DNA from: an uncultured Gammaproteobacteria bacterium
GTDB lineage: Bacteria > Patescibacteriota > Microgenomatia > Daviesbacterales > UBA10151
NCBI GenBank assembly: GCA_964500725.1
Contig: CAZCNP010000001.1
Span: forward strand, 766 to 64,765
Direction: 5' to 3'
DNA length: 64,000 bases
Shown here: positions 1 to 17,988 of the stretch, in pieces
How positions within the stretch are numbered: the first letter of the stretch is position 1
Layout: each line of letters opens with the position of its first letter
Position numbers and translations under genes: made by a program
The notes under the pieces: generated by a model
The model's database searches: none
What the model was told of the DNA's origin: nothing
Seen by the model: the letters and a program-made list of their open reading frames with translations, nothing else

Positions 1-377
1 TTTCATCTTACTTGTTGTCCTAAAACACTAACTTTCTATGCTCTAGCCTCATACAGTCACAATAAGCAAAATTCCTCTCAGTTGTCCATACCTCAAAATA
101 CGCTCTTCTCTGTATGATGCAATACCTTAGATAGAGGTTTGCAACCACAAAAAAAGACCCCTTGTAGGCTAAATTGCCTTAAGGAGTCTTGAGTTCGACT
201 CTGACCCGACACGGCAATCAGCCTCAGCCCTTTAATACGCTAAGCCGATAGCCATGTCTTTCTATCTTCTGGTATTAATTATACCATGTCATAATATAAA
301 GAGTATATATACATAATTAATCTGTAATACATAAAAGATATTATAGACAAAAAAACCTACAGCCTTACAATGTAACT

Positions 378-1011
378 ATGGCAGAAGTAACAATTCAACT
401 AGGCACAGGCGGATTCTCAGCTTCCATGCAGCAGGAAGACGCGGATGCAGCAAGCGGTGCGATATCCCTAGCAATGGGGGAAGACAATACCTTTACCCAA
501 CTATTCAGGGGTGGATTAAAGTTCGGATTGACTGATATTCCCCAAGGATCAACAATCAACTCTGCAACCCTAACCTTAACCTATGAACAAGCAGGCAACT
601 GGCGGTCGAGCAACAACAGGACGTGCAGGGTATACAGGTGTTTAAGGGCTTTTGTTAACAATGAAATGACCTGGAATTCCTACTCAACAGGTAATGCGTG
701 GGGTACAGCAGGTGCAGGCAACACCACTACTGACAGGGGAAGCAGCAGACATAGGCACAGCCACCTTTGCGACTACAGCCAATGTTGACGATACAATCAG
801 CTTTACCTTAACAGCAGCTAAGATACAGGAAATGATTACAGGGGGTGTATTCACCAATAATGGCTTTATCCTAAAGGTAGATACAGAAAGCTCAGACAGA
901 TACCAGTTCATAGGTTCAGGGGGGACAGCAGCAAAAAGGCCCAAGCTTGTAATTGACTATACTGCACCAATTGTTGAACAAAAGAACCGTAGCTATGCCT
1001 ACTTCATGTGA
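378..1011 (+). CDS. Hypothetical protein of the mobile element, split over two overlapping frames (378-788 and 694-1011); possible frameshift or pseudogene
   Basis: Both ORF-track frames read as plausible protein on either side of about 700-740. The tail of frame 1 looks like out-of-frame sequence. Confidence 0.35.
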
Positions 1012-1389
1012 CTTAAAGATTGCGAACCGGGTTCCGAATCTCCTAAAGGGTAAATTTCTAAAAATTCCAGAAAAAAAATTTAAGATTAATTTTTAACTTT
1101 GGGTAAATTTTATAAAAAATATAAAAAATAATTTTCAGATCTTTGTATAGCTATTCTTCTACCTAACCCTTTACCCTATATTCTACAGAGGGGGTATGAC
1201 ATTTCATAAGGTACACCACCCACCACCAGGAGGGGGGGATTGAAAACACATGCCCCTATACCTTGAGTAGGGAAACTAGGATAGCAGGGGATTTAGAAAT
1301 AAGGATTTAAGATATGGTGTTTGTTACTCACTAAGTGGACTTTTAGGATAAAGGGAAGAAAACAGTCCGGATAATATACTTAGTATTAC

Positions 1390-1767
1390 TTATCCCTTAT
1401 CGTTATCTATTGAATTATTGCTTTCTAATTGTCTTAGTCTTTTTTCCATATCCGTCTTTTCAACGGTCTCTAAATATATCTTTGAAAGGTGGGCTAGGTC
1501 CCGGGCTGGTATTGTCTTATCGCCTTTGCCTACACTTGTTAATGTAGCCTCAAGTAGTGTCTTTATATCTGCTATTCCTTTTACCTTAAAGTCTTTCAAA
1601 TCTAATGGTCTTTGGAATCTTCCGAATCCACCTTTTTGACTCATTTGTTGTCTAAGTTTTAAGTCCTCAGGGCAATGAAATATACACAAAACCTTTGAAC
1701 TCTTAAATCTACTTGCTCTACAAGGTAAACCCGTCTCTTTATTTTTTGCCTCACATTTTAATGTCAT
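1390..1767 (-). CDS. Small zinc-ribbon protein (mobile element)
   Basis: ORF has CxxxxC and CxxHC motifs near the N-terminus. It is the last gene of a tightly packed minus-strand operon with overlapping stops and starts. Confidence 0.5.
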   Translation of the reverse strand: MTLKCEAKNKETGLPCRASRFKSSKVLCIFHCPEDLKLRQQMSQKGGFGRFQRPLDLKDFKVKGIADIKTLLEATLTSVGKGDKTIPARDLAHLSKIYLETVEKTDMEKRLRQLESNNSIDNDKG

Positions 1768-2063
1768 AATTGTTGCTTACTTTCTGCCAGTCTATACCAA
1801 CTACCGAAAGTCAGCTTTCTGTCCTTAGCCGACCGTTCAATTTCTTTCTGCTTTTCTCTCACTTGGTTTATCTTTTTAGCACCGAAGATTTTTACATATT
1901 CCGCTATTCTCTTGGTGGCATTTGTTGTGTCCGCAAACCCATATTCCAATTGTGTGAAATAATAGTCAACCATTAGGCGGTCCAGACGTGTCATATTATC
2001 CTTATCTTTAAGGTTCTTTTCCAAGATTTTAAGCCGGCTATCAATTGATACACCTGATGGCAT
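1764..2063 (-). CDS. Hypothetical protein (mobile element)
   Basis: ORF overlaps its neighbours by 4 nt, suggesting translational coupling. Confidence 0.5.
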   Translation of the reverse strand: MPSGVSIDSRLKILEKNLKDKDNMTRLDRLMVDYYFTQLEYGFADTTNATKRIAEYVKIFGAKKINQVREKQKEIERSAKDRKLTFGSWYRLAESKQQL

Positions 2064-2064
2064 T

Positions 2065-2466
2065 TTAGTTACTCTCCTTATTGTATCTTTTCTTTAAATC
2101 TTCAGTTAAGACAACAGTAACCGTTTTAGCTAACGCTTCAATATCTTTGCTGTATTTTTCAATTAGGAGTTCCTTTATCCTGGCTGAATGTTCAGCTGTT
2201 GTAACACTAAATGCAGGCAAGGTTACGTCTTCGCTCTTAACAAGCTTTGCTACATCCGCTGCCTGTTGGTTCGTCAATGCTTCTGCTTCCTTGGGATACT
2301 CTTTCCTGAATACTGCATAGAAATATTCTAGTGCTAACCTTTCCGCGAGCTGTTCAATCTCTCGCTCTCTGATAACAACTAAAACTGGTTTTCCATCTTC
2401 TAGTTCTTCTTTTTTAATTGTGTAATCCATATTATTCACCTCGCTTCCTTTATTGATTTTTCCCAT
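2065..2466 (-). CDS. Hypothetical protein (mobile element)
   Basis: ORF in the operon, with charged and helical composition. Confidence 0.5.
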   Translation of the reverse strand: MGKINKGSEVNNMDYTIKKEELEDGKPVLVVIREREIEQLAERLALEYFYAVFRKEYPKEAEALTNQQAADVAKLVKSEDVTLPAFSVTTAEHSARIKELLIEKYSKDIEALAKTVTVVLTEDLKKRYNKESN

Positions 2467-2645
2467 TCAATCGGCACCATTGGATTCATTTCTATAAAGA
2501 ATGTGTGAACAAAATCATTAGCTTTTGGCATTATCTTTAGTTTTCCTGCATCTAAGCCTTTGATTATCCCTTCTAAAAATATCGTTCTGAATTTATGCTT
2601 ACCCCTATCAGTTAGATTGTTATATTCCATTATTTCATTATCCAT
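2436..2645 (-). CDS. Hypothetical small protein (mobile element)
   Basis: ORF overlaps both neighbours. Confidence 0.4.
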   Translation of the reverse strand: MDNEIMEYNNLTDRGKHKFRTIFLEGIIKGLDAGKLKIMPKANDFVHTFFIEMNPMVPIEWEKSIKEAR

Positions 2646-2967
2646 TGTTCTTCCCTTCTAATAGTTTGGCTCGCTCTGCCAGCATAGCTTCCATTTTCTC
2701 CATCTTAAATGCCGGAACGATTGAACCTGTCTTGCCTGTCCCCATGTTTAACAGGGTTTGCTGGTACTCGATCATTAACTTATCCAAAAAGTCTTTTATC
2801 TTTTGCTGTAAAGCTGATAAATAGCCAGGCTTTACCATTTCTTCTTTTAGGATACTGAGCAAGTATTCATTATCACCGTTATTAACCATGAGAGAGCCTA
2901 GGATATAACTTTGAATCATCATCAGCACTTTAGTTTTGTTTTCTTGGTTTTCCATAATTCCTTCCAA
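2638..2967 (-). CDS. Hypothetical protein (mobile element)
   Basis: ORF in the operon. Confidence 0.45.
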   Translation of the reverse strand: MEGIMENQENKTKVLMMIQSYILGSLMVNNGDNEYLLSILKEEMVKPGYLSALQQKIKDFLDKLMIEYQQTLLNMGTGKTGSIVPAFKMEKMEAMLAERAKLLEGKNNG

Positions 2968-3652
2968 ATCGTGTTGTGTGAGATTCTAAAATGCTCTTTT
3001 TTTCGGCTTTGGTTAATCCGCCTTTTTGAAAAGATTGATACCTTTTAATCAGTGGTTCAAGGTGTGTACATTTTGCGCACAACGGTCTTTTTCTGACATC
3101 CTTAGTAAGAACGTCCGTATCACAAATCTCACAGGTTGCTAAACTTAACTGTCTGTTTTTCATTTCCCGTTGTTTTTCTAAGGGTAAATCTGATTTTGTA
3201 GTCTTGGGTTTTTCGTAAGCTGATAACAACTTTCCGAATTTCTCATTTAATCCATTTTGTTTCATAAGGATTCTGACATAATTAGCCAACCGATCGAGCC
3301 TGCTCTCACCTGGAAGGGGTGCTACCATTTTATCTTCCAATGCCCTGATAGTTCCTAATATATCCTCGATCTGGTTGCTCTTAGATTTAACTACTGCATA
3401 ATCAACCAAGTCGCCTACTTTTTCCTTAACCAGATAATCATTATTTTTAGGAATACCCAAAAAGTTAAGAGTTTCATAAAAGGTGGGTGAGCTTCTGTAA
3501 TCATCCTGTGGGATCAATTCTTTTGCTGCTTCAAAATCTTCGGACGTTATCTGGTCTTCCTGGGAAACCTGGTTATCCTGCGTCTCCGGCTGTTCCTGAG
3601 GATTATCAGTAGGTACATCTGTGTATATTGGCTGGGCAGTATTTTCATCCAT
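2930..3652 (-). CDS. Hypothetical protein with an acidic N-terminus and a C-terminal Cys4 zinc ribbon
   Basis: C-terminal CEIC...CAKC motif. Confidence 0.5.
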   Translation of the reverse strand: MDENTAQPIYTDVPTDNPQEQPETQDNQVSQEDQITSEDFEAAKELIPQDDYRSSPTFYETLNFLGIPKNNDYLVKEKVGDLVDYAVVKSKSNQIEDILGTIRALEDKMVAPLPGESRLDRLANYVRILMKQNGLNEKFGKLLSAYEKPKTTKSDLPLEKQREMKNRQLSLATCEICDTDVLTKDVRKRPLCAKCTHLEPLIKRYQSFQKGGLTKAEKKSILESHTTRFGRNYGKPRKQN

Positions 3653-3795
3653 AGTTTTGGTGCATGGGCAGTAGATAGTTACCCTTTAAAAGGCGCTTAA
3701 GGCCACCCATGCGTATTTTTTCTTAAGCCTATATAGAATAACGGCCTAGGAAATTCTGTCAACTAGCAAAGCAGCTAGGTTGTGTTGGCTACCAG

Positions 3796-4137
3796 CTAGT
3801 CCTCGTACAGTGCCTGCCGGTAGCAGCTCTTGCAATAATAAATTAATTTTCCCTCTTCCGCTTCGGTCTCTACCCTTTCACCGCTTAAAGGCTCGTTGCA
3901 GCCGTAGCAGTGACTTCTTTGAAAGATCAACAGTTCATTTTTTAACACCTGCCTAGTCCTACCAACTTTGCCCCTACAGTTTTTGCAATATTTTGCATTA
4001 CTTTTTGTGGCAAATGCTGTTTGGCAATTAAAGCAAACGCTGACATGCGATCTTGGTCGGTATTCCGTCTTTGGTTTCTCGCCAAAGTTTTTAGGTAGGA
4101 TTGTTTTGCCTTGTTTATCCCAGTTTGCAAAGCGCAT
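3796..4137 (-). CDS. Cys-rich zinc-finger protein
   Basis: Multiple CxxC pairs (CFNC, CKNC, CYGC, CKSC). Confidence 0.5.
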   Translation of the reverse strand: MRFANWDKQGKTILPKNFGEKPKTEYRPRSHVSVCFNCQTAFATKSNAKYCKNCRGKVGRTRQVLKNELLIFQRSHCYGCNEPLSGERVETEAEEGKLIYYCKSCYRQALYED

Positions 4138-4142
4138 TTAAC

Positions 4143-4511
4143 CTACACCCCCCATTTACTATCTTTTAAAACTTCTTGCGCCTGTTGGTCCCACTTTCTT
4201 TTTTCCAGTTCAAACCTTCTAGCTTCCTGGCTGGCGTCATAAACCCTATCTTGGATTCTGCTTACTTGGCTATCCTGAACATTAGAGAGCTTTCTAGCCC
4301 ATGAAGTTTCCTGTTTGCTGTGCATCCGTACAGGTTCCAGTTGCTTCTTTAACTTTTCCTGTCTCTCTGCTGCATCTCTTTTGGTAAAAGCTGCAATTCT
4401 GTGAGCAAAAATATCCCTTCCGGTAAATCGCTCACCTTTTTCCAGTTCTATTTTTCTTATCTCAGCTGCCGTGGTTGAATCAATATTATCTGTTGTAAAT
4501 GCTTGTGACAT
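4143..4511 (-). CDS. Hypothetical protein (mobile element)
   Basis: ORF with charged, coiled composition. Confidence 0.5.
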   Translation of the reverse strand: MSQAFTTDNIDSTTAAEIRKIELEKGERFTGRDIFAHRIAAFTKRDAAERQEKLKKQLEPVRMHSKQETSWARKLSNVQDSQVSRIQDRVYDASQEARRFELEKRKWDQQAQEVLKDSKWGV

Positions 4512-4529
4512 TATTTGTACACCTCCTTC

Positions 4530-4829
4530 CTATGGTGAATAGTTAATATAAAATAGCTTCCAGTTCTCGTTAATATATTGAGTCGGTGTAACACTTAAGG
4601 CTATAAGTGTCTCAATCAATAAAGTTCCTATATATGGCGTATTACTTGGCGTACCTAACGCGTCTGTGATTACTTTACGCAACCATTGCTTTGTCTGGTC
4701 TGGTAAAGTTCCTGTGAAGGATTGACCGTTAAAATAAGTTCTTTTTAATTGGTCAATCGTAACCTGGGCTGTACCAGGATTTACCCTAGCCAGCAACCAA
4801 TCCCTCTCCAGTTGTTGTAAGCTTGCCAT
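4530..4829 (-). CDS. Hypothetical protein (mobile element)
   Basis: ORF in the operon. Confidence 0.5.
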   Translation of the reverse strand: MASLQQLERDWLLARVNPGTAQVTIDQLKRTYFNGQSFTGTLPDQTKQWLRKVITDALGTPSNTPYIGTLLIETLIALSVTPTQYINENWKLFYINYSP

Positions 4830-4989
4830 TATATGCCCCTCCTGTAATATGACTGACTAAACGCTAGATCCTTCTGCTCCTTACACGGCTTGCAACGTAC
4901 CGGTTCATTAAAGTTTCTTTTTTTAAAATACTCCTGATCCTTAGTTCCAAAAGTAAAAAATTCTCCACAATCTACACATTTTATTTTTT

Positions 4990-7900
4990 TCATAGTGATT
5001 GCCTTAACATTAATTTTTTAGTAGACAATGGTGTGAAAAGTCGCTTCGGCAGCTTTGGAACCATTATCTTTGCTGGTGTTATTTTATTAATACTTGGACT
5101 AATTTTCCTAATAGGTAAAAACTTTAATTTTTTAGGTCGTGTGTAGTTGCCTGTGGGTGTATCAAGAGTGCCTTTGCTGTAAGCAATTAGCTGATCCAAC
5201 ATTTTTTTCTGTTCTTTGGAAATGTCCCCATCGTCCAACCACTTAGCCGTTACTCCGGTTGATAAAACTTCAACCTCTGCTAAATAAAGAGCTGTCTTTT
5301 TGAATTCCTCATTTGCTAGTCCTTTCAGTGTTCCCTTGATAAACTTACCCCTGCTGCCGTTCTCAACTGATAGTCCCTTCATCATAATTACACTGGCTGT
5401 TTCCCAGCTCAAGCCTTGCTTTTGTAGTATTTCTTCTGTTTGTGCTCTCGGTAGGCCCAAATCAAAAACATCTTTTATTGTTTTCTCGTTTTGGGACATT
5501 TCCCTTTCATTCATCAAAGCATCAAGTAGGGGATCGCCTGTAGGATTCTGTTTAGTTGGTTCTGTAGCTTTTTGTTTAAATAATCCAAACAAATCAAATC
5601 CTGACTTGGGCTGTAAGTCCGGTTTCACTTCCCTGGACCGAATAATCATATTGTGGGCTTCTGTGGGCTTATATCCTGAATTCAGTAATAGTTTGTATGT
5701 TGCTGTTTCTGCCTCTGATAATGGTCTGCCGTCGTCATAATATTGCTGTGCGCCAGAGGTAGTCGTAGGTCCGAAAATAGCAGCTTGTGGACCTTGCACC
5801 GGATACCTTAAACGTCCTGTTTCGGTATAACTTCCACCTTCTCCGATTGCCTTTGTTCCCTCAAAGGTTTTCTTAATCTGTGCACCTGCCGGAAGATAAT
5901 TTATAGCACCTTTCACTACATTTTTATTTAATATACGGTCCTGTAGGCTTAGCGGATTACCATAGGCGTCCTGATCCTGAGTAACAGCTTGAGTTGCACC
6001 GTAGGGTAACTGCAAAGTAGGTGGTACTCCTATCCTTATTGTTGGTATCAAATCTTCAACTTTCATTCCCCATAACCTGCCTAAGGTTGATACCATAAAT
6101 AGGGAAGCGCCTGTCCATCTAACAAGCCCTGCAAAGTCTTTATTTTTTATCATGCCACCCAAAAACTCACCTTGTTTTAAGGTATAGGATTGAAATTGAC
6201 CTAATGTTTTAGCAAGGTCTGAAGAAAGAATCTGAGGAGTATCAATACTGCCAAATGTGAATTGAGTTTCTCTTACCAGTTGCTTTGCATACTTAACCGC
6301 CTCTGCCTCGCTCATGCCCTGACTGATAGCTTTTGCCTTTGCGCCCCAAAAAGCTGCACCCCTGTTGATTTTTTCAGCTAGGTTGAATAGATAAAAAAGG
6401 CCTTCGTCAATCTTTTGCATCGTCTGTTTTGTTGCACTGAGTGTCCGGTCTTCAATTATGTTATTTGCTAAAACTCCCACATCGTGCAGCTCTGTGTCTT
6501 TGCCTGCTAAAAACTTCGGCATATTTTGTAAGACCTTTGTATATCCGATTAAGGTATATTTTTCGCCTAATTTTGCGTAAGTGTTGGCGCCCTGGGTAAG
6601 ATTTAGTAAGGCAGTTTTAACATTGAGCCCCAAAAGTCCCCGGTAAACCATTTGTCGGGCTTTTTGAGTGATAACCGTTAGGGGTCTTGCTCCCATTCTG
6701 TAGCCAAAAGGTGAGGACTTAATGGCATTGTCGATCAAATTATCAATATCCGAGGGCCTCATATTTATACGATCAATCCGGGATTTAACGTACCTGAACT
6801 GCGAATCCTCCAAGCCTTCAGCTGCGTCACTTATCTTTTTTAGCACAGGGTCCAAGTTTACTTTCCTGACGGCCCTTTTTGTGTAAGCATCAAGCGATCG
6901 CCAAACATCCTCAATATAGCCTTGTTTTCCTAGCCGTTGCTCAACAAAAGGATCATAAACTGAACCAGCTACTTTGTCTCGGATTAATTTTGCAAAATCC
7001 GGATCAAATTCTTTTTTTATTAAGTCCTGGTCGAAAATGTGTGTAATGTAATTTGTGATCCTTTTCTCTTTCGGCAAACCCAACCTTTCGGCCCAATTAG
7101 ATAGATAACCTTTGATCTCTTCTGCAACCTTTAACTCTTCCCCCTGCAAAATAGTATTTTTTCCATCTAGCCATTGAAAGATTTTTTGATTTGATTCAGG
7201 CAAAACACGCTTACTCCAATCCGTAATCCTTTGAATCTCTTGCGGTAGTTCTGTTTGATAGCTGTCAAAAGCAGTCCGGAGCTGCTCCGCCTGTTTTCCT
7301 AAACCTATTTTATTAAGTACATATTCGGGTGTTCTGAAATAGTCCAGAATGTTTACCTTTGATTTAACATCAATGCTGCTTTTTAAAGAATTTTCAAAGG
7401 CACTGGCTGAATCGTAATTACCTTGCGATTTAATCCAGTCCAAAGGCGTCATATTATTTTCAATAATTTTCTGGCTTTCCTTATATCCGATCTTGTCTAT
7501 CTGGGCTTTTTTAAAACCTCTTGCGATTAAGTCATTCCCGTAATTTAAAAGGTTTGAGAGCCTTGCTTCTTTAGTGGCTGCTGTAGCAATCTTTGCTCCT
7601 ACCTTTGCCCCAACTTGAGTAACGCCCATTGGTGAAAAACTCAAAGCTTGTTCTGCTATTTGCTCCTGAGTTGGCAGTGGATTCTTTTGTGCAAAGTTTG
7701 ATCTACGTCTTAGGCCTTCCGGTGTTTCACCAAATCCTGCAAAACTGGCAACGTCTTTCCCGTAATTGACTGCGGGCTGAATATATCTAGTGTTTACGTT
7801 CTGAAGCCTTTTCTGTAAATTATTTGCCAGTGTATCAATTGTTGGTTTTAAAACCGTATGCGCTTGACCTAAGAAATTTTGAAAACCTTGGTTTAACTCA

Positions 7901-8175
7901 TTCATTTGCGGCTGAGCTATTTTTTTTAATTCGTTTATAAATCGGTCTTGAGCGACTTCAGTCGGTGGGGTAAATCTAGGTAATTGGCTGGGGGGTTGTG
8001 GGGGTAAAGGGTTAAAATTTTGTGGCCGGGGTGTTTGTAAAAAATTCTGAAAACCCGTTTCTAAGTTTTCCAAACCTTGACTCGCTTTCTGGGCAACAGT
8101 ATTAAAGTTGCTAGCAGAAATTATTTTTTTTACGGCTTCTGATCCGAATTTTTCTAATGCCGTCGAAATGCTCAT
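4990..8175 (-). CDS. Large hypothetical protein (1061 aa), possibly virion-associated or structural
   Basis: Long ORF with a Pro/Gln-rich N-terminal region and a Lys-rich C-terminus. It is the largest gene of the element. I recognise no catalytic motif. Confidence 0.55.
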   Translation of the reverse strand: MSISTALEKFGSEAVKKIISASNFNTVAQKASQGLENLETGFQNFLQTPRPQNFNPLPPQPPSQLPRFTPPTEVAQDRFINELKKIAQPQMNELNQGFQNFLGQAHTVLKPTIDTLANNLQKRLQNVNTRYIQPAVNYGKDVASFAGFGETPEGLRRRSNFAQKNPLPTQEQIAEQALSFSPMGVTQVGAKVGAKIATAATKEARLSNLLNYGNDLIARGFKKAQIDKIGYKESQKIIENNMTPLDWIKSQGNYDSASAFENSLKSSIDVKSKVNILDYFRTPEYVLNKIGLGKQAEQLRTAFDSYQTELPQEIQRITDWSKRVLPESNQKIFQWLDGKNTILQGEELKVAEEIKGYLSNWAERLGLPKEKRITNYITHIFDQDLIKKEFDPDFAKLIRDKVAGSVYDPFVEQRLGKQGYIEDVWRSLDAYTKRAVRKVNLDPVLKKISDAAEGLEDSQFRYVKSRIDRINMRPSDIDNLIDNAIKSSPFGYRMGARPLTVITQKARQMVYRGLLGLNVKTALLNLTQGANTYAKLGEKYTLIGYTKVLQNMPKFLAGKDTELHDVGVLANNIIEDRTLSATKQTMQKIDEGLFYLFNLAEKINRGAAFWGAKAKAISQGMSEAEAVKYAKQLVRETQFTFGSIDTPQILSSDLAKTLGQFQSYTLKQGEFLGGMIKNKDFAGLVRWTGASLFMVSTLGRLWGMKVEDLIPTIRIGVPPTLQLPYGATQAVTQDQDAYGNPLSLQDRILNKNVVKGAINYLPAGAQIKKTFEGTKAIGEGGSYTETGRLRYPVQGPQAAIFGPTTTSGAQQYYDDGRPLSEAETATYKLLLNSGYKPTEAHNMIIRSREVKPDLQPKSGFDLFGLFKQKATEPTKQNPTGDPLLDALMNEREMSQNEKTIKDVFDLGLPRAQTEEILQKQGLSWETASVIMMKGLSVENGSRGKFIKGTLKGLANEEFKKTALYLAEVEVLSTGVTAKWLDDGDISKEQKKMLDQLIAYSKGTLDTPTGNYTRPKKLKFLPIRKISPSINKITPAKIMVPKLPKRLFTPLSTKKLMLRQSL

Positions 8176-8183
8176 ATTGTAAT

Positions 8184-9455
8184 TTAAACGAAAGGATTTG
8201 TTAGATTTTCATAAGGGTCATCTTTATTACCCTTTGTTGGAGCGTATAAAGAATATGAATTCAAACCTTGGCTTTGTGGGGACAAACTTTGCGAACCAGA
8301 AAAACCGGAATAATCTAAAGTCGGCTGCTGAAGCTGGGAGAAGTTGTTTGCAATTTGCGCGTTTTGCTCGTATTTCCATATTTCTAAATCCCAGAGGGCT
8401 GCTTGGCGAGTAGCCGCTAAATTATCTATTTGTGATTTGTATTGACTCAAGAGCTGAAAAGCATTCCCCGCCTTGGCTGACTTTATTGAACTCTCGTCTG
8501 AAAAAATCTGCATAAGCTGGGCTTGAGCGTTGGCTCTGATTTTTTGCTCTTCCGTAAGGACATTCTCATCAATTTTTCGTCTCTGATTGAAGGCGTATCG
8601 GTCCAGTTGCGCGGCATAATCCTGCAATTTAGCTGTTTGATTTGTATATGAGCGCTCATTTGCCCCTTGCTGTCTGGCAAATTCCTTAGAGGCTATTTCT
8701 GTAGCGGCCATCCCTGCACTGCCCCTACCTCCGAATCTGGCTTGGGATTGCTGTTGAAGGGCTTTATACGAGCGGAGAGCCTCGTCAAAAGCTGACGTTT
8801 TTTCTGCATCTAACGCGCCTTGCGAGGTCTTAATTGTATCAAAACCAAGTTGCTTTTGCTCTTCCACATCTCTCTTCATTTGCTCTTGTTGCAATTTCAA
8901 ATCATTAAGCGCTCCTGGTAAAGAAACGTCATTAATATATGATTTTTGTTGTTGAAGAGTGTCAAAAAGTGGATTATAAATACTATCCAATTGTGCACTC
9001 AAATCCGGCTGACTGTTTGATGAACCATAGCCACGGGCTTGTCTTAATCTGTTTATATCGCCACCCATAGCAGAATTGAAGTCATTAATTGCGGAACCTT
9101 CGGGCCAACCTTGATAAAATGGCGAAATTTGATCCCAAAGAGAACCACCGCCGGAATTATTTTGCTGAGGTGCAGGAGTTGGTGCAGGTGCAGGTTTGGC
9201 AGGCTGTGGGACGTTATAACCTACAACACCGGAACTGCTCAAAGGACTAATCAAGCCTGGCGTTTGGTACGGTGTCAGTTGAGCACTGGTTGAGGTCCGG
9301 TAATTTAAATCTAACGGACTGGTGCTTCTATAAAATAAATCATTTGGTACGTTTAATGCCATAATTTTTCCCAATAAAAAAGAGCCCTTTGCCGTTTTGG
9401 CTTTTGGACTCTCTGAATGACCTTTTAAGGTCAAAACAAATATTTGTATTCTCAA
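8184..9455 (-). CDS. Gln/Asn-rich coiled-coil protein (423 aa), possibly scaffold- or fibre-like
   Basis: ORF with Q/N-rich and Pro-Ala stretches. It is the first gene of the leftward operon. Confidence 0.5.
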   Translation of the reverse strand: MRIQIFVLTLKGHSESPKAKTAKGSFLLGKIMALNVPNDLFYRSTSPLDLNYRTSTSAQLTPYQTPGLISPLSSSGVVGYNVPQPAKPAPAPTPAPQQNNSGGGSLWDQISPFYQGWPEGSAINDFNSAMGGDINRLRQARGYGSSNSQPDLSAQLDSIYNPLFDTLQQQKSYINDVSLPGALNDLKLQQEQMKRDVEEQKQLGFDTIKTSQGALDAEKTSAFDEALRSYKALQQQSQARFGGRGSAGMAATEIASKEFARQQGANERSYTNQTAKLQDYAAQLDRYAFNQRRKIDENVLTEEQKIRANAQAQLMQIFSDESSIKSAKAGNAFQLLSQYKSQIDNLAATRQAALWDLEIWKYEQNAQIANNFSQLQQPTLDYSGFSGSQSLSPQSQGLNSYSLYAPTKGNKDDPYENLTNPFV

Positions 9456-9703
9456 GTATATAGGCTGTGGAAAAGTTGTCTAGATACCAAAATAGGCACA
9501 AATCAAAAAAAACTACCCAAAAATCAAAGGCCCTGTAGTTCGATTTAAGGGCTTACAGATAGTGTCCCCTACTCTTAGGGTCAACTAAACTAAAAATTAC
9601 AGGCACAAAATGAAGCTAAAATAGTGGGGGAGTGGTAGGGTATCAAACTATGTCAAAAATGCCTTAGTTTGGATGAGTATATCAAAGTGTATCAAGAAAA
9701 GAT

Positions 9704-9970
9704 TTAACTGCTGTTTTTCTGTGACGTGGCTATATTACAAAGCTGTTCACAGACGAAGTCCGCAGCTTTTCTATCAGACAAACCGCTGGGCACTTCAACG
9801 TGAATGTTTCTGATTTCTATTGCAAATCGCTCTGCGTCCTCACCAGAGTTAAAATAACCTGGTAAAAAACCTCTTGAGGTTTCTTTATTCACAAGAACTG
9901 CAATTGCTGCCTGGAACTTGCCTGTTTGATGATCTTGCCTCACTCCTTTGATTTCAACTTTGTAATTCAT
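9704..9970 (-). CDS. Hypothetical small protein
   Basis: ORF upstream of the leftward operon. Confidence 0.4.
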   Translation of the reverse strand: MNYKVEIKGVRQDHQTGKFQAAIAVLVNKETSRGFLPGYFNSGEDAERFAIEIRNIHVEVPSGLSDRKAADFVCEQLCNIATSQKNSS

Positions 9971-10059
9971 TATTTTAATATTACCAGAACCTTAAAACAT
10001 ATCTAAGCCTATAGATATTTTGGTCTTATTTTGCGCACAAAATGCTTTTAAGTTGCCCC

Positions 10060-10088
10060 TTGACGACAAATATTTTTGGTAGTATTCT
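10060..10088 (+). promoter_or_regulatory. Candidate sigma70-type promoter (TTGACG, 17-nt spacer, TATTCT) driving the rightward replication operon, inside a divergent control region
   Basis: Hexamers read directly from the sequence. Nested inverted repeats (AGCAGC..TCGGAgcgaTCCGA..GCTGCT, then a T-run) lie at about 10140-10200. Confidence 0.3.
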
Positions 10089-10283
10089 TGTTTGCAGTTA
10101 GAAAATAAGAACAGCTAATTCAGCTTTTAAAAAAGCACTTTAGCAGCTATATTTTTCGGAGCGATCCGAAAGAAATGGCTGCTTTTTTTGTGGAATTTTT
10201 AGATTAAAGGAGAGATTCAGTAGGTGGTAATTAATGTTTTCTTGAAAAACTGGGCATATTCCGCCACCTACTGAAAACAAAAC

Positions 10284-10487
10284 ATGAACACTATAAAAGA
10301 TTATATCAGAAATAAAAAAGTAGGCCTTTGGAGCAAGGTATGTCTTACTTGCGGCGTCCCCCTTAAATACAAACACTCAACTCACCCTTATTGCAGTAAG
10401 TGTTACCTGAAATCTGAAATCTTCCACGAGTGGCGCAGAAAATATGACCGAGCACGCAGAAAAAGAGAGAGGGAGGCTAAAAAATGA
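10284..10487 (+). CDS. Small zinc-ribbon protein, translationally coupled to the primase (ATGA overlap)
   Basis: CLTCG...CSKC motifs, Lys/Arg-rich tail, and a 4-nt overlap with the next gene. Confidence 0.5.
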   Translation: MNTIKDYIRNKKVGLWSKVCLTCGVPLKYKHSTHPYCSKCYLKSEIFHEWRRKYDRARRKREREAKK

Positions 10488-12991
10488 GTTATCAATCCTT
10501 AACTCCTGAAAAACTTCTAAGTTATTTCGAGGGTACAATCTTTCAAACTTTTTATGATCCGGATTCTACTAGCAAGGAATTCCCACCTGAAGTGTTTCTA
10601 AGCTACAGCCCCCATGAGTTAAAGGAATTAAACAATCAGAAATATGGAATATATTTTTCGGTTAATGCCTTTAAGGATCAGAGGCTAAACGATAACCTCG
10701 TCAAATTAAATGCCGCCTATGGCGATTTGGACATAGCTAAAGAGGGGGACGGGCAAACACCAGCAGATATTTTAAATAAAAAAAGGGAAGTTTTTAAAAA
10801 GCTGCGCGATCTATCTATTAAGCCTAACATTATTATTCAGACTAAAAATGGCGTTCAACCACTATTCTTAATCGAGAACCCTGGAATTGATAAAGACACT
10901 ATCAAAACCTATACAGACACAATCTGTGGACTTACAGCCTGGTCAAAGAATTATGGCTGCGCCGGAGACGCGGTTAAAGACATAGCAAGGGTTTTAAGGC
11001 TTCCCGGCTATTACCACCAAAAGGGTGAGCCGTTTATGGTTGAAGCCTACCTAATTCATGAAGAAAAAACCACACTCTTAGAGCTTTCTAAACTGTTCCC
11101 ATATTTTGATGAGAGAAAGATCATAAATGATAATTCTGCAAAGGACGGGAAATCTACTGACCTTGATGGCCTTACCATGCAAGAGATTGCCCTGGCAGCC
11201 CTGAAAGAATATGGAGAGCCGGACGCATATTTTGATGATAAAGGCAGGATATGGATTAAGAGAGGGGTTACCGGTGCATTCTTAGGCAAAATGGATAATT
11301 GCGACTATATCGGCAGCAACTCGCATGAGCTGCCCTATGGGAACAAAATAACTTTTGTTAGGGAGCTGTTAAAGCTTGAAAGTAATGCAGCAGCTTTTAA
11401 GTGGATAGCTCAAAAATTCAATTTACAAAGACCGGTACCGGCAAAAGAAAGTTTTGAACAATTAACCGACACTACAAACGCCGAACTCATCAATGAATTG
11501 TTTGGTAATAAAATCCGCTTTGACCATAAACGCAAGAGGTGGCTGAAATGGCAGGACCATTCCTGGCAACCCGATTCTGACGGCAGTATCAGCAGATTAG
11601 CTATAGAGGCAGCCAGACACCGATTCAAATCCGCTGCTAATATTGAAAGCTTAACTAAAAAAACTGCAATCTCTAAGTGGGCCATTCAAAGTGAGAGCAG
11701 ACAAAGACTTGATTCAGCTTTGGCAATATCAAAAAATTTGCTACCAATTGCCGACAATGGTGAAAATTGGGACTTAGACTCTATGCTTTTAGGAGTTAAA
11801 AATGGAGTTTTGGATCTCAAAACAGGAACTTTAAGGGACGGCAAACCTGAAGATCGTATAACCATGCGGGCAGGAACACTATTCTACCCCGAAGCAAAGT
11901 GCCCGCTTTGGGAAAAATTCCTAAATGAGATTTTTGAAAATGATGAGAATTTAATCAGTTATATCCATAAGGCGTTGGGGTATACCTTAACAGGATCAGT
12001 TATAGAACAAGCCCTATTTTTCGGATTCGGCAGTGGCTCAAATGGGAAGAGTGTTTTCTTTGAAACTATCAACGCCGTCTTAGGTGACTATGCACACAAT
12101 GCGCCAGCCAGCTTACTTCAACGAAATGCACAGAATCAATCCTCTAATGACGTTGCAGCAACTGAATTCAAAAGATTTTTAGTGTCTTCGGAAACCCTTA
12201 GCACTTCTAAGCTGAACGAACAACGGTTAAAAAAGTGGAGCGGCGGAGACCGTGAAACGGCAAGGTATCTCTATTCTGAATTTTTTACATTTCAACCCAC
12301 CTGTAAGGTTTGGTTATTCATCAACCATAAACCGGCGGTTGAGGATGATTCCTTCGGGTTTTGGCGGAGAGTCAGACTGATTCCTTTTAACCGAAAGTTT
12401 AAAGAGGAGGACCAGGACAAGCACTTACTGGAAAAATTAAAAACAGAACTACCAGGAATCTTAAACTGGATGGTCAAGGGTTGCTTAAAATGGCAAGCAG
12501 AGGGATTAAGGCCTACACCTGAAAAAATATCTTTGGCGACTAAAAACTATCAAGCCGAAAATGACGAATTGGCTGAATTCTTATTTGAAAAATGCAGTGA
12601 GTTGGCGGGCCAAGAAGTCAAGGCACTGGAACTATACCGCAAATATACAGAATGGGCCGAAAAAGCAGGATTTAAAAATAAAGATGCGCTCACGAAGACA
12701 GCCTTCGGACGAAGAATGGCGGATAAATTTGTTAAAATTCACCGTGAAACTGGCTGGTTTTACCAAATAACTGACGAGTTTGCTAAAAATCTAGGCACGA
12801 CTGACGAGTTAGACCCCATTTTATATAAAGTCCCTATACGAGATAATCACCAAAATAGTTTACTAAAAACAGCTCTCAACTCGTCAGCAGGCACGAAAAC
12901 CCGTCAGGACTCGTCAGCTGACCAAAAGGACGAAAAACCCAAAATTACCCCCACAGACAAGGAGGATGATGGCAGCTGGCTTGAAGCGTGA
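10484..12991 (+). CDS. Phage/plasmid primase-helicase (D5_N / P4-family primase C-terminal, SF3 helicase)
   Basis: 835-aa ORF with a Walker A motif (FGSGSNGKS). The family identification rests on overall resemblance. Confidence 0.75.
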   Translation: MSYQSLTPEKLLSYFEGTIFQTFYDPDSTSKEFPPEVFLSYSPHELKELNNQKYGIYFSVNAFKDQRLNDNLVKLNAAYGDLDIAKEGDGQTPADILNKKREVFKKLRDLSIKPNIIIQTKNGVQPLFLIENPGIDKDTIKTYTDTICGLTAWSKNYGCAGDAVKDIARVLRLPGYYHQKGEPFMVEAYLIHEEKTTLLELSKLFPYFDERKIINDNSAKDGKSTDLDGLTMQEIALAALKEYGEPDAYFDDKGRIWIKRGVTGAFLGKMDNCDYIGSNSHELPYGNKITFVRELLKLESNAAAFKWIAQKFNLQRPVPAKESFEQLTDTTNAELINELFGNKIRFDHKRKRWLKWQDHSWQPDSDGSISRLAIEAARHRFKSAANIESLTKKTAISKWAIQSESRQRLDSALAISKNLLPIADNGENWDLDSMLLGVKNGVLDLKTGTLRDGKPEDRITMRAGTLFYPEAKCPLWEKFLNEIFENDENLISYIHKALGYTLTGSVIEQALFFGFGSGSNGKSVFFETINAVLGDYAHNAPASLLQRNAQNQSSNDVAATEFKRFLVSSETLSTSKLNEQRLKKWSGGDRETARYLYSEFFTFQPTCKVWLFINHKPAVEDDSFGFWRRVRLIPFNRKFKEEDQDKHLLEKLKTELPGILNWMVKGCLKWQAEGLRPTPEKISLATKNYQAENDELAEFLFEKCSELAGQEVKALELYRKYTEWAEKAGFKNKDALTKTAFGRRMADKFVKIHRETGWFYQITDEFAKNLGTTDELDPILYKVPIRDNHQNSLLKTALNSSAGTKTRQDSSADQKDEKPKITPTDKEDDGSWLEA

Positions 12992-13244
12992 TACTAAAGA
13001 GAATATCCGGTTATCAAAAATTGCTCAGTATTTCACAGAGCTGAAAATGCTGCGCAAAACTTGCAAAGAAAACATGGAGCATTACAAATTTCTAAAAGAG
13101 TTTAAAGAAATGCCGATTGTGATTCTTGAGGGACTAGGTGTAGATAGATTTTTCTCAGAGGCAGTCTTCATTTTTGACGGTGTATTAACCCCTGAATTTA
13201 TAGAAAGTTTCAGACAAACAGAAAGTAGGCCATTCTGGGGATAA
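12966..13244 (+). CDS. Hypothetical protein
   Basis: ORF overlapping the primase end. Confidence 0.4.
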   Translation: MMAAGLKRDTKENIRLSKIAQYFTELKMLRKTCKENMEHYKFLKEFKEMPIVILEGLGVDRFFSEAVFIFDGVLTPEFIESFRQTESRPFWG

Positions 13245-13245
13245 T

Positions 13246-13455
13246 ATGGCTGCAATTATTGTGAAAGCAAAACCTGGGGAAAGTACCGATAAGCTGATAA
13301 AACGCTTTCAGCGTGCAACGTCTCAGGACGTAAAAGGTTTTAAAGAACGAAAAGCTTTCATAAGTAAAACTGAAGAACGGTTGCTCGCAGAAAAAGAAAA
13401 GAGAAGAAAAATTGCAAAGTTAAAAAGACTACAAGAATTAGGAATTGAACAATAG
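13246..13455 (+). CDS. rpsU: Ribosomal protein bS21-like (element-encoded)
   Basis: 69-aa basic protein. It aligns along its length to E. coli bS21 (compare [22 protein letters not shown]....[13 protein letters not shown]). Confidence 0.6.
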   Translation: MAAIIVKAKPGESTDKLIKRFQRATSQDVKGFKERKAFISKTEERLLAEKEKRRKIAKLKRLQELGIEQ

Positions 13456-13768
13456 AAGGGGGGTGAATTATGGAAAAAATAAATATTGGTTTATTTGTGG
13501 TTTGCGTACTTTACCTTCTTTGGCTGTTCAAAATGAGCAAGGTTTTTTAAAGTTTGCCGACCGGGCGTTTGTTGGGAATGCCCGGTTGAGAGATTTTAAA
13601 ATATGAAAAAAGAAAAACCATATTGTGAGAAAGACAAAAGCACCTCTTCTGCAGGCCCTGTAGCAAAAAATATGCCAAATTGCGTGCGTAAGTGTAGAGC
13701 TAATACCCCAGAGAGCACTAGTACATCATCTCAAAATAAGCTAGGCACGATTTCGTAGTTAGAAAAAA

Positions 13769-14809
13769 TTAGGATATTTCAACTTCAAGAGTCAGAATAT
13801 TTCCTTTTAAATTTCCACCTTTAATAATACGTCCAACTTCCCAAGCATGAGAAATCAGTTCTTTGGCTTTCTCTTCTGCGCTTCTGAATTTTCTAGCCTC
13901 TGAACTGTAATTTTTTAAAGTTTTAGCTTGAGTGCTTGTATCAAACTGTAAATACCTTAATGTGGTTTCTACTGCCCTATGTCCCATTACGTCTTTAATG
14001 TCTGAAACATCGGCACCGTTAGCTTTTAAATCCCTGGCAAATATCCGGCGTAAGTCGTGCACATTCATGCTGTTACCCCAAAGCTTACCAACTTTTCGCA
14101 TATGTACCTCTAATTTTTGCATATTAACCACAAACAAACGGTCCTTGTCACTTTCTTTATAGTGGCTTTTATCTTTTAAAGTTTTAAGTTCATCCGGTGT
14201 GCGCTCACCATTTACACGCCTCTTTAAATCTTCCAACAACCAAGGTATGTTTGGCAATGCTGCATTCCTGGGTCCGTTCTTGCCTTCAACAATTGTGAGC
14301 TGATTACCACTGAGCGAAACGTCTTTTCTTAATATCTGGGAAGTCTCAAAGTTTCTACCACCACAAGCTACAACCATAAAGCTGAGACAGGCCCGGTGTT
14401 CCATTTTAGAGAATGTTGATAGCCTACTGTCATATTTGCCTGGCTCTGTAGCTTCTTTTATCAGTCCTAAGACTTCGGATTGAGACGGTAAAACACGGGC
14501 TTTCCTGTGTACATGGGTTCGGTCAATATTAACTGTCCATTTTTTAGGGATAATATCTTCATAAAATAGCCAGTCTGCAAAAGCCAGGACAGCGGTTTCA
14601 GCCTGTCTTCTGGTTGACTCTGCCAAACCTTTATCCGGTAGATAGTTAAAGAATTTGATAATGATTTCACGGTTTAAGGGTCCGTCTAAGTATTCAAGGA
14701 ATAGTTTGAAGTAATACAGGTTATTAGTCCTGGTGGATTTTGATTGCCACCTTCGCTGCCTGTGTTCTATAAATCTTTCTAAATGTGTACGCACCTGCTC
14801 TTTATCCAT
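13769..14809 (-). CDS. int: Tyrosine recombinase / integrase
   Basis: C-terminal HDLRRIFARDL....GHRAVETTLRYL motif (His, Arg, catalytic Tyr). The ORF-track start at 14890 is a GTG overlapping the tRNA, so I trimmed it to the ATG (MDKEQ...). Confidence 0.85.
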   Translation of the reverse strand: MDKEQVRTHLERFIEHRQRRWQSKSTRTNNLYYFKLFLEYLDGPLNREIIIKFFNYLPDKGLAESTRRQAETAVLAFADWLFYEDIIPKKWTVNIDRTHVHRKARVLPSQSEVLGLIKEATEPGKYDSRLSTFSKMEHRACLSFMVVACGGRNFETSQILRKDVSLSGNQLTIVEGKNGPRNAALPNIPWLLEDLKRRVNGERTPDELKTLKDKSHYKESDKDRLFVVNMQKLEVHMRKVGKLWGNSMNVHDLRRIFARDLKANGADVSDIKDVMGHRAVETTLRYLQFDTSTQAKTLKNYSSEARKFRSAEEKAKELISHAWEVGRIIKGGNLKGNILTLEVEIS

Positions 14810-14883
14810 ATAAAAGAATAAAGAGATGGTGTCATTCCGCAAGACCTTAACCCACCCGTATGAGTGAGAACTCACCTCAATTG

Positions 14884-14956
14884 TGGGCACTGAGGGATTC
14901 GGACCCCCGACAACCGCAGTGTAAATGCGGTGCTCTACCAGCTGAGCTAAGTGCCC
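14884..14956 (-). tRNA. tRNA-Val (anticodon TAC)
   Basis: Hand-folded cloverleaf: acceptor GGGCACT/AGTGCCC, anticodon stem CCGCA/TGCGG, loop TTTACAC, T-loop TCCGAAT. Confidence 0.85.
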
Positions 14957-14991
14957 AATTTCTGCTCAGCCCGCAGAGCATAGCACAAATA

Positions 14992-15035
14992 CTTCGCAGT
15001 GTAAACGAAGCGCTCTACCACTGAGCTAAGTGCCC
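14992..15035 (-). pseudogene. 5'-half pseudo-tRNA-Val (acceptor, D-arm and anticodon region only); an att-associated remnant
   Basis: GGGCACTTAGCTCAGTGGTAGAGCGCTTCGTTTACACTGCGAAG. The intact tRNA-Val has the same acceptor and the same 11-nt TTTACACTGCG anticodon-region core, but a different D-loop and anticodon stem. The T-arm is missing. Confidence 0.6.
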
Positions 15036-15036
15036 T

Positions 15037-15123
15037 TGGTGGGCGGGACAGGACTTGAACCTGCACAGTCTTGCGACCATATGCACCTCAAGCATACACG
15101 TATACCAATTCCGTCACCCGCCC
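15037..15123 (-). tRNA. tRNA-Leu (anticodon GAG), long variable arm, encoded CCA
   Basis: Acceptor GGGCGGG/CCCGCCC, anticodon stem TATGC/GCATA, loop TTGAGGT, T-loop TTCAAGT, 87 nt. Confidence 0.8.
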
Positions 15124-15178
15124 ACATCATCAGCAATTTTATCAGTTTACTAGGGGGTTAGCAATCTAAAGGAGAGAT

Positions 15179-16411
15179 CTAGGAATTAAGGGTATCTTGT
15201 GCAGCAACTGCATATAAACCGTGGGACTGTTTCGCTTCGCGAAATAAATTCTTCTTTGGTTGACTTCCAGGAATTAATATATTTCCTGATTTTGGTATAG
15301 ATATTATAGGTGCCCTTACTTTTGTATACCTCTTGGCAGGAATATACATCTCTTTTCTATAAATTTTTAGATATTGTAAAGCTGCTGTGTAAGGAGAAAA
15401 ATTCTCCTCCACATGCAGCCTGCAAACTTTTCTGTCAATTTCCCCAACCCTTTTGATAGCTTTGACCATTTCTTGTTTGTCTTTAACCAAAAAACCAGTT
15501 TTATTATTAACAATAAGCTCAGGAGCTGCCCCTCTTTTAAAACTAATAACAGGGGTGCCTGCAGCCATTGATTCCACCATGACCATCCCAAAAGGCTCAT
15601 CCCAATTTATAGGATTTAAAAATGCCTTAGCCCCGCCCAACAATCTATTTTTAAGCCTTAAATTAGCAGGTCCCAGAAACTGAATTTGCTTGCCATCTAT
15701 TAAAGGTTTTACTTTTTCCTTCCAGTATTTAACTGATTTTTCATAATAGGTATCCACAATTCCTGCAAAGACTAGCTGCTCTCCTGCAGCTTTGGCAATC
15801 TTAATTGCTTCAACTGTGCCTTTTTCTGGAATAATTTTGCCCAACCAGGTTAAATACTTCCCACCTTTTGGATTAAACTTGATAGTTGAAGTATCTAAAC
15901 TGTTATAAACAAAGCCCCCATCACGAAAACCTTTTGGCAGGGTTTTATGCATTGATTTGGAAATATTAACAGCCAAAATATCTTTGGCATACAGTTTTAT
16001 CAAAGTCTTATCCATATTAGAATATCTATCATATGGCCATCTGGAATGAATGGTCATCAAATTTGGGATACCTTGCTTAGTCAGATCTGCTAAAAAGGGC
16101 ATTACTATCAAATCTGTAGAAGAAGCAATGTGGGCATGAACTACATCATATTTAAAAGCCTCCTTAAATGCTTCATAATAATGAATAAAAGCAGGCAAAC
16201 CAGCAGTCCAGGAAATTCCCTGGGATAGCAGAGATCTTTTAAAGATATATTTAATGTTACTTATAGCTTTGGAAGTCTTAGTGGCAAAAAGAGTTACTTG
16301 ATGCCCTAAATCAGACAAACCTTTAACTAAATTAGCAATAACCCATTCAGTTCCTCCATAATTATCAGGTGGGGTATCTACCCATGGGGAGGCTATCTGT
16401 AATATCTTCAT
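15179..16411 (-). CDS. Glycosyltransferase family 4 (GT-B, Glycos_transf_1)
   Basis: EPFGMVMVESMAAGTPVI...NNKTGFLV, the E-x7-E retaining GT motif. Confidence 0.8.
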   Translation of the reverse strand: MKILQIASPWVDTPPDNYGGTEWVIANLVKGLSDLGHQVTLFATKTSKAISNIKYIFKRSLLSQGISWTAGLPAFIHYYEAFKEAFKYDVVHAHIASSTDLIVMPFLADLTKQGIPNLMTIHSRWPYDRYSNMDKTLIKLYAKDILAVNISKSMHKTLPKGFRDGGFVYNSLDTSTIKFNPKGGKYLTWLGKIIPEKGTVEAIKIAKAAGEQLVFAGIVDTYYEKSVKYWKEKVKPLIDGKQIQFLGPANLRLKNRLLGGAKAFLNPINWDEPFGMVMVESMAAGTPVISFKRGAAPELIVNNKTGFLVKDKQEMVKAIKRVGEIDRKVCRLHVEENFSPYTAALQYLKIYRKEMYIPAKRYTKVRAPIISIPKSGNILIPGSQPKKNLFREAKQSHGLYAVAAQDTLNS

Positions 16412-16422
16412 AATTTTGTAAA

Positions 16423-16456
16423 AATTACAGTCTTTTACTGAAAGTAAAAGTATATA
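16423..16456. promoter_or_regulatory. 34-nt conserved palindromic element (AATTACAGTCTTTTACTGAAAGTAAAAGTATATA), copy 1, 12 nt upstream of the GT4 start
   Basis: Identical to 48382-48415. It contains an 8-3-8 inverted repeat (CTTTTACT gaa AGTAAAAG) and a TATATA box. Confidence 0.55.
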
Positions 16457-16520
16457 GACCTGCCAAAGTATAAATGTTTTAAATTAGAGAAAATTGAAAA
16501 TTAAGTAAGGTTTTAGTAAG

Positions 16521-17804: not shown

Positions 17805-17841
17805 TTTGAAATGGGTAATCTACAAAATTATTATATACAAG

Positions 17842-17988
17842 TCAAGTAAGAATTTGCTTTAGTAACTTTTCTTTTAAATCCTCTAAGTTTTTAAATATAA
17901 TCCCTTTAATTCCTAATTTTTCCTCCATCAAAGTACTTTTGTGTTTTAAAATAACACCCCCAAAATCGAAAATAATATTTTTAATCAT
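17842..17988 (-). CDS. 48-aa ORF resembling a HAD-like hydrolase N-terminal motif I (IIFDFGGVIL); possible gene remnant
   Basis: Hand translation. Absent from the ORF track because it is under 60 aa. Confidence 0.25.
   Translation of the reverse strand: MIKNIIFDFGGVILKHKSTLMEEKLGIKGIIFKNLEDLKEKLLKQILT

Follow-up and report, generated by a model that had tools for sequence, protein, structure and literature searches.

The DNA analyzed here is a stretch of 64,000 nucleotides (nt) from a Candidatus Daviesbacteria bacterium, below called the window, and all coordinates are window positions unless a contig is named. An integrative element of 15.7 kb has very probably split the host tRNA-Val(UAC) gene of this bacterium at the anticodon, has rebuilt nothing, and carries a tRNA-Val(UAC) gene of its own. 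The reading is based on comparison of sequences, from which the boundaries of the element, the empty site, the split gene, the element-borne tRNA and a layout conserved among relatives were all established (Table 1).

Read along the minus strand, the locus begins with a promoter-like site, which ends 12 nt ahead of the host tRNA-Leu(GAG). The 5' part of the host tRNA-Val starts at 15035, one base past the CCA of the tRNA-Leu (15037), and is formed by the 5' strand of the acceptor stem, the D arm, the 5' strand of the anticodon stem and the loop through A37. Together with the adjoining element arm it reads GGGCACT TA GCTC AGTGGTA GAGC G CTTCG TTTACA C TGCGAAG. It is followed by a spacer, an intact tRNA-Val(TAC) and a tyrosine integrase gene, and ARAGORN, Rfam and Pfam agreed on this layout, which the original prediction had proposed. 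That prediction had also described the tRNA-Val fragment as a 5' half of 44 nt: the fragment is real, but only 36 nt of it belong to the host gene and the last eight (CTGCGAAG) are element sequence. When the fragment was analyzed by itself, ARAGORN did not call a tRNA and the Rfam score was 22 bits against a threshold of 29. Its identity to the intact gene is 88% over 42 nt.

The far end of the element and the empty site were taken from Logan read-assembly contigs. Apart from the two copies of an 11-mer described below, the window includes no further copy of that sequence, no second 3' half of the intact gene and no short junction repeat, the far end of the element being outside the window. 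Contig L016 overlaps window positions 1–1075 at 100% identity (by coordinate offset) and extends 2.7 kb further left, and on it the missing 3' half was found approximately 710 nt outside the left edge of the window. The TACA of this junction, attR, is situated at L016 positions 2020–2023, corresponding to window positions −713 to −710. On the tRNA strand the contig reads GGGTCCGGACGCACGACC TACAT CGAAG ATGTC AGGGG TTCAAGT CCCTT AGTGCCC ACCA, and the element sequence before the TACA is also written GCACGACC. The CGAAG of attR pairs with the CTTCG of the fragment, and its AGTGCCC with the GGGCACT of the fragment. When the 5' part and the far 3' part were joined, ARAGORN recognized a canonical tRNA-Val(tac) of 75 nt; from attR alone it found no tRNA. 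The element extends from position 14999 down to about −713, its length being 15,713 bp.

A host protein of 245 amino acids (aa) is encoded beside the 3' half, and an exact-protein look-up with it yielded contig L027 (SRR4343430). This contig is identical to L016 (100%) over 1147 nt of host flank and diverges from it exactly after TACA, where it continues into GTAGAGCGCTTCGTT, a sequence corresponding to the D and anticodon stems of the window fragment. The 15 nt before TACA are identical between L027 and the fragment (19 nt when TACA is included), and the tRNA-Val fragment is thus no chance likeness but agrees with an uninterrupted allele in another sample. L027 shows the tRNA-Val without interruption from the D stem to the CCA, attB thus overlapping the host tRNA gene, and on this comparison the contig is the unoccupied site. 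Two further contigs, L028 and L029, terminate exactly at TACA, as would be expected where occupied and empty alleles branch in an assembly graph. Occupied alleles were present in several samples.

An intact tRNA followed by an integrase gene is the usual appearance of a tRNA-integrated island, and the acceptor strand GGGCACT is common to fragment and intact gene. If the integration had been of this canonical kind, the intact tRNA-Val would be a hybrid of host and element, and the fragment a relic of an unrelated integration or deletion. Such an origin is very improbable, as in the empty-site allele it is the upstream fragment, and not the 5' part of the intact gene, that continues directly into the far 3' half. 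This allele has GTAGAGCGCTTCG as its D loop and stem, whereas the intact gene has GTAGAGCACCGCA. Furthermore, the 3' half of the intact gene, of which the window holds no copy, differs from the far-end 3' half, the element and host tRNA-Val genes being 79% identical overall (pairwise). A canonical tRNA-regenerating island was rejected also on the grounds that the intact gene consists entirely of element DNA and that the pairing partner of the far-end 3' half is the upstream fragment.

The three junctions delimit the crossover narrowly. The sequence of attB (GCTCAGTGGTAGAGCGCTTCGTTTACATCGAAGATGTCAGGGG) includes CTTCG TTTACAT CGAAG, while attL reads CTTCG TTTACAC TGCGAAG and attR CGACC TACAT CGAAG; the predicted attP is GGGTCCGGACGCACGACCTACACTGCGAAGTATTTGTGCTATGCT. 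TACA, representing tRNA positions 34–37, is the sole block common to attL, attR and attB, and this comparison places the crossover within TACA or at its edges. The 11-mer TTTACACTGCG is therefore not the recombination core. It occurs exactly twice in the 64 kb (14915–14925 and 14995–15005), against a chance expectation of approximately 0.4 matches, and at least two copies were present in 10 of 100 shuffles. Within it, TTTACA is the anticodon loop of tRNA-Val(UAC), and CTGCG is the start of the element arm, which happens to resemble the stem of the element tRNA.

The left junction (5' tRNA-Val part, spacer, full tRNA-Val(tac) and integrase gene) was found also from five relatives with integrase identities of 46–75%: a Daviesbacteria sequence (L006, 75%), a metagenome contig (L010, 54%), a contig of an ENA metagenome assembly (L022, 54%), the closed 811-kb chromosome OZ246419.1 (L007, 50%) and another metagenome contig (L011, 46%). 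A tRNA gene stood directly ahead of the integrase gene at every locus with readable upstream sequence, and a tRNA-Leu was immediately upstream in L006, L007, L010 and L022 but absent in L011. The acceptor strands of the fragment and the adjacent intact gene differ in each of the five relatives, so the two are not copies of each other, which also speaks against canonical integration. In L011 both ends of the element are on one contig, approximately 7.2 kb apart and marked by the 10-nt direct repeat TTACATCGAA. There the GGGCGCT of the 5' part complements the AGCGCCC of the 3' half, host tRNA-Phe and tRNA-Gly genes follow, and the intact tRNA-Val lies wholly between the two copies of the repeat, a position again contrary to a hybrid gene. 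Right junctions were found from three relatives (L011, L015 and L030), both ends only from L011, and those of L015 and L030 have a related element arm, GCAC..CG.C, before [C/T]TACA. The far ends of L006 and L007 were not within their 10-kb flanks. L030, a full Logan contig of 15.85 kb, was considered as a circular genome and rejected as such, since its ends do not overlap; starting with the element tRNA it extends to an attR junction and thus represents an integrated copy.

Also the possibility was considered that the fragment is a host pseudogene produced by local duplication of a tRNA-Val and unrelated to the element. Partial tRNA copies do occur in bacterial genomes, and a different 5' pseudo-tRNA-Arg is present beside a GIY-YIG-like open reading frame (ORF) in L022. 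Yet this explanation is hardly credible at all, because the complementary 3' half lies exactly at the other end of the element, because the element-free allele is one uninterrupted gene, and because in six independent loci, with nothing in common but the integrase family, the fragment stops at one and the same tRNA position.

Two side observations concern the relatives. In the L022 case (9150–9545), a duplicate of the first approximately 33 nt of a tRNA-Arg(TCT), its D loop interrupted by an 18-nt hairpin, precedes the ORF, which was judged GIY-YIG-like by eye, and the intact tRNA-Arg then follows. It is apparently a second kind of 5' pseudo-tRNA, from a different insertion. In L009 (2200–3511) and L014 a related integrase gene (52% identity) is situated just past a tRNA-Pro(TGG) instead of a tRNA-Val, with a TCGTTACATTAG motif 80 nt upstream of the tRNA-Pro; neither a half tRNA upstream nor a 3' fragment in the 10 kb downstream was found.

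With both ends and the empty site in hand, the remaining proposals of the original prediction can be placed. Integration into a tRNA-Leu/tRNA-Val tandem is supported by the missing 3' half at the far end and by the element-free allele, which L027 carries uninterrupted and without any half. The crossover is indeed in the anticodon region, at TACA, and the element did bring a complete tRNA-Val, the intact gene being inside the element boundaries both here and in L011; the alternative of a relic from an earlier round of integration is not needed. The shared 11-nt core did not hold, as TACA is the core at this locus and TTACATCGAA that of L011, and the opposite end was accordingly found to have the expected 3' half but TACA, not the 11-mer, as its repeat. 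Retention of a 5' half had been regarded as atypical. Both halves are retained, one at each end, because nothing is rebuilt, and this retention is the defining trait of tRNA-dependent lysogeny as described by Guerrero-Bustamante and Hatfull (mBio 2024, PMC10865867).

The following course of events would account for the locus. The 15.7-kb element would enter the host tRNA-Val(UAC) gene one base past the tRNA-Leu(GAG), its tyrosine integrase recombining attP with the anticodon loop of the host gene by an exchange within TACA; we infer that this integrase is the catalyst. The 5' 36 nt of the gene would remain beside the tRNA-Leu at attL, and the 3' 39 nt, including the CCA, would be moved 15.7 kb off to attR. 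As attP shares few bases with the tRNA, neither junction would rebuild the gene. The replacement gene is situated between attP and the integrase gene on the same strand, and it would therefore drop into the tRNA-Leu operon at the former place of the host gene and there stand in for the lost tRNA-Val(UAC).

The element tRNA-Val is wholly within the element boundaries, 43 nt past the crossover, oriented like the split host gene and immediately ahead of the integrase gene. Presumably it supplies the tRNA-Val(UAC) lost by the cell, and it would be expressed by read-through from the tRNA-Leu promoter, from the promoter-like motif at the junction, or from both. The split anticodon arm and the element arm together form a 7-bp hairpin (14991–15011, minus strand; GCTTCG...CGAAGT), flagged by a terminator scan although the T tract behind it is weak; this hairpin could lower read-through from the tRNA-Leu into the element tRNA. 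A CCA is encoded by one of the six tRNA genes in the window, the tRNA-Leu(GAG) (15037–15040). The split host tRNA-Val also encodes it (L016 1981–1984), whereas the element tRNA-Val and the other four genes do not.

Several observations weigh against a gene split and replaced in this way. The 4-bp identity is shorter than the 6–8 bp overlap usual for tyrosine recombinases, and either mismatches are tolerated or a junction has mutated after integration. L027 reaches only 15 nt beyond the junction, short of the tRNA-Leu. No circular form or attP junction was seen, for which reason the attP was deduced from attL and attR; a scan of IMG/VR with the integrase alignment found no relative, and hence yielded neither a free viral genome nor an attP. 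Searches of Pfam, PHROGs and NCBIfam recognized no capsid, portal or terminase, so the prophage label is unproven. The T loop of the element tRNA-Val (14897–14903, minus strand; TCCGAAT) has C55 at a position where U (pseudouridine 55) is nearly universal, while the split host gene has the normal TTCAAGT, and this raises some doubt on full function. Finally, the census of tRNA-Val(UAC) genes covers the window, and a second copy elsewhere is possible.

The last two points are in line with a further explanation, according to which the integration took place as described but the element tRNA-Val is not needed as a replacement: the cell would have another tRNA-Val(UAC), or the element gene would serve another purpose, such as codon supply during replication or escape from an anticodon nuclease. 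Passages in two publications assign such roles to phage tRNAs (PMC10264068, PMC11025619). This explanation is nevertheless improbable, considering that in all six loci the anticodon of the element tRNA is that of the split gene and the tRNA stands directly at the junction, and that occupied alleles are present in several samples. Furthermore, the only other valine tRNA in the window has the anticodon GAC, which by standard wobble rules cannot read GUA, and genomes of the Candidate Phyla Radiation (CPR) are generally single-copy for tRNA genes.

The left junctions share one further property. In all six of them the distance from TTTACA to TGnTAnnnT is exactly 17 nt, and this stretch differs in its bases from junction to junction while its length stays constant. 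The pattern has a single match in the 64-kb window (TTTACA, 17 nt, TATGCT with TG), and its form is that of an extended −10 sigma-70 promoter. In the predicted attP the −35 position would read CCTACA or CTTACA. Integration could thus act as a switch in which the host anticodon loop lends the element promoter a near-consensus −35 box, and the replacement tRNA-Val, perhaps also the integrase gene, is turned up only after the host gene has been destroyed, but this is a tentative and rather unlikely interpretation. The −10-like box of L010 ends 5 nt ahead of the tRNA and that of L022 2 nt ahead, too close for a normal leader, and therefore a site for the recombinase or an accessory protein is at least as likely.

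A gene split and replaced as proposed here has its closest counterpart in the tRNA-dependent lysogeny of actinobacteriophages (PMC10865867), in which a tyrosine integrase uses an attB within a host tRNA gene. The common core there, approximately 10 bp (8–17 bp), is too short for the tRNA to be rebuilt, and lysogens are viable only with a phage tRNA of the same isotype. The examples include Fionnbharth/K4, cluster L, Gaia and the Gordonia CQ2/DL phages. To account for the shortness of the core, a puzzle met here as well, the authors suggested an unusually short overlap or tolerance of mismatches, and they asked how common the phenomenon is outside actinobacteriophages. The Daviesbacteria element shows the same four features at the sequence level, namely the integrase, an attB in a tRNA gene, a short core and a cognate element tRNA, and would represent a further case, in a new phylum; in the literature on tRNA-dependent lysogeny no case from the CPR was found. 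Also similar to the actinobacteriophages are the lack of a rebuilt tRNA at both attL and attR and the different solutions used by relatives within one integrase family.

The differences concern the host (CPR/Patescibacteria), the target (tRNA-Val(UAC)), the core (4–10 bp in the CPR elements against 8–17 bp) and the size of the elements, which are 7–16 kb with no recognizable capsid or terminase genes. In the CPR elements the replacement tRNA begins 19–61 nt past TTTACA (43 nt in the window), between attP and the integrase gene and in the orientation of the split gene, whereas in Fionnbharth the tRNA is elsewhere, overlaps gene 37 and has its own promoter. Dependence on the element tRNA has been shown experimentally in the actinobacteriophages, while for the Daviesbacteria cell we infer it. 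Passages in PMC10865867 and PMC12429752 also cite the Lactobacillus johnsonii prophage Lj965, in the former as a probable case outside Actinobacteria, and Lo5R7ANS-like prophages of Sinorhizobium, the group studying the latter reporting another case. According to these passages the target tRNA is not rebuilt and a cognate tRNA is encoded, as in the present element, but the hosts belong to other phyla and the elements are recognizable tailed prophages.

Canonical tRNA and tmRNA islands (Islander, PMC4383910) resemble the locus in having the integrase gene beside the junction, the crossover in the anticodon loop and the order tRNA, integrase gene, element. They carry the 3' portion of the tRNA, which restores the gene and leaves no more than a displaced 3' fragment behind. 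The Daviesbacteria element, by contrast, restores nothing: the two halves persist as fragments, and the element carries a complete additional gene. Another known arrangement of separated halves is that of Nanoarchaeum equitans, in which the 5' and 3' halves of tRNAs are encoded kilobases apart with the break beside the anticodon. The leaders and trailers of those halves are complementary, and the archaeal splicing machinery joins the halves. Halves separated by kilobases and a break adjacent to the anticodon are found also here, but in a bacterium and with the break as an insertion scar. Joining in trans of the Nanoarchaeum type was rejected, as the flanks of the halves are not complementary (by eye) and the empty site shows an insertion; the endonuclease was not searched for. 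Sublocation classes of tRNA-gene integration sites are said to have been described by Williams in 2002.

The integrase was detected from an ORF at 13769–14890 (minus strand) with a Pfam match to PF00589 (Phage_integrase; E 7.7e-11) and also matches the PHROG integrase. The gene called in GenBank starts 191 nt from the crossover. A collection of 5.8 billion proteins included 26 homologues, all named sources of which were Patescibacteria or Daviesbacteria. Residues R152, K177, H251, R254, H277 and Y286, which we take to be the catalytic set, are invariant in 27 homologues.

Among the other genes of the element, the P4/D5-family primase-helicase is likely its replication protein. The coiled-coil-like protein (approximately 400 aa in the relatives) and the 1061-aa protein are encoded as a conserved pair in L022, L023/L030 and L024; neither had a useful match in PDB sequences, GenBank phages, Pfam or PHROGs, and only five homologues were found for the 392-aa protein. 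The element also encodes an AP2-like DNA-binding protein and a treble-clef zinc-finger protein. Hints of a phage origin are given by the P4-family primase, the bS21-like ORF and the weak PLxRFG domain match, and the element had no match in IMG/VR or the GenBank phage collection. The G+C content is approximately 0.40 in the element (below the integrase coordinates), whose genes look foreign, and 0.32–0.37 in the host flank. Near the right end of the element, the overlapping ORFs 378–788 and 694–1011 (plus strand) each match part of the Disaggregatase-related repeat domain and look like one frameshifted gene. For ORF 2065–2466, near the left end, a look-up found nothing on record.

Table 1. Features of the element and its host junction, with window positions and the basis of each assignment.
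Feature	Position	Strand	Basis or remark
Promoter-like site, putative promoter of the host tRNA-Leu/tRNA-Val operon	15136..15164	−	TTGCTA, 17 nt, TAAAAT, TG before; consensus scan only
Host tRNA-Leu(GAG), CCA encoded	15037..15123	−	ARAGORN; Rfam 52.7 bits
Host tRNA-Val(UAC) positions 1–37 (attL host arm, 36 nt)	15000..15035	−	Sequence; comparison with L027; ARAGORN on joined halves
TACA block, anticodon UAC plus A37	15000..15003	−	attL (window), attR (L016) and attB (L027) compared
Spacer (attL element arm), with TGC TATGCT (hexamer 14977–14982)	14957..14999	−	Promoter scan; junction comparison
Element-borne complete tRNA-Val(UAC), CCA not encoded	14883..14956	−	ARAGORN tRNA-Val(tac); Rfam 68.8 bits
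Tyrosine integrase, 346 aa	13769..14809	−	Pfam PF00589; PHROG integrase
bS21-like protein, 69 aa	13246..13455	+	NCBIfam TIGR00030 30.4 bits (cut-off 28.95); Pfam PF01165 20.9 bits (below cut-off 27)
P4/D5-family primase-helicase, 835 aa	10484..12991	+	Pfam D5_N, DUF5906, Pox_D5; PHROG DNA primase E 1e-108 to 1e-111; TIGR01613 268 bits
Coiled-coil-like protein, 392 aa	8184..9362	−	Gene call
1061-aa protein	4990..8175	−	Gene call; weak PLxRFG match NF032893 ('tail-700'), E 3.6e-14, below cut-off
Body of the integrated element inside the window	1..14999	−	Continues approximately 710 nt past position 1 to attR

Between the window and contig JACQIW010000013.1 (GCA_016198315.1, Candidatus Daviesbacteria bacterium), 15,312 nt were compared (L001, window 2864–18175) and showed 100% identity. 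The contig stops at window position 2864, inside the element, so the mobile element has fragmented the assembly; the right junction and the host flank beyond it are not on this contig, and both may be on another contig of the same assembly. A look-up for the empty site with the flanking glycosyltransferase led to no contig other than this GenBank one. For the host protein P0028 an NCBI source is on record (longest contig 79.6 kb), but the contigs returned for it were all from Logan. An exact inverted repeat of 34 nt is present at approximately 16423–16456, upstream of the glycosyltransferase gene, and at 48382–48415 in the host part.

The locus provides a clean example, at the sequence level, of tRNA-dependent lysogeny outside actinobacteriophages, with attL, attR and attB all in hand. 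What differs from the known cases is the placement of the replacement tRNA directly at the junction, and the phylum, which is new. The setting is the CPR, a group with barely known mobile elements and with small genomes in which single tRNA copies are expected. As the layout is conserved down to an integrase identity of 46%, it represents a stable strategy rather than an accident. Split tRNA halves mark the boundaries of such elements precisely in metagenome bins of the CPR, and a 5' tRNA fragment followed by a full isoacceptor gives a search pattern for more of them. The cassette of attP, tRNA and integrase gene is also a candidate integration tool for organisms without a genetic system.

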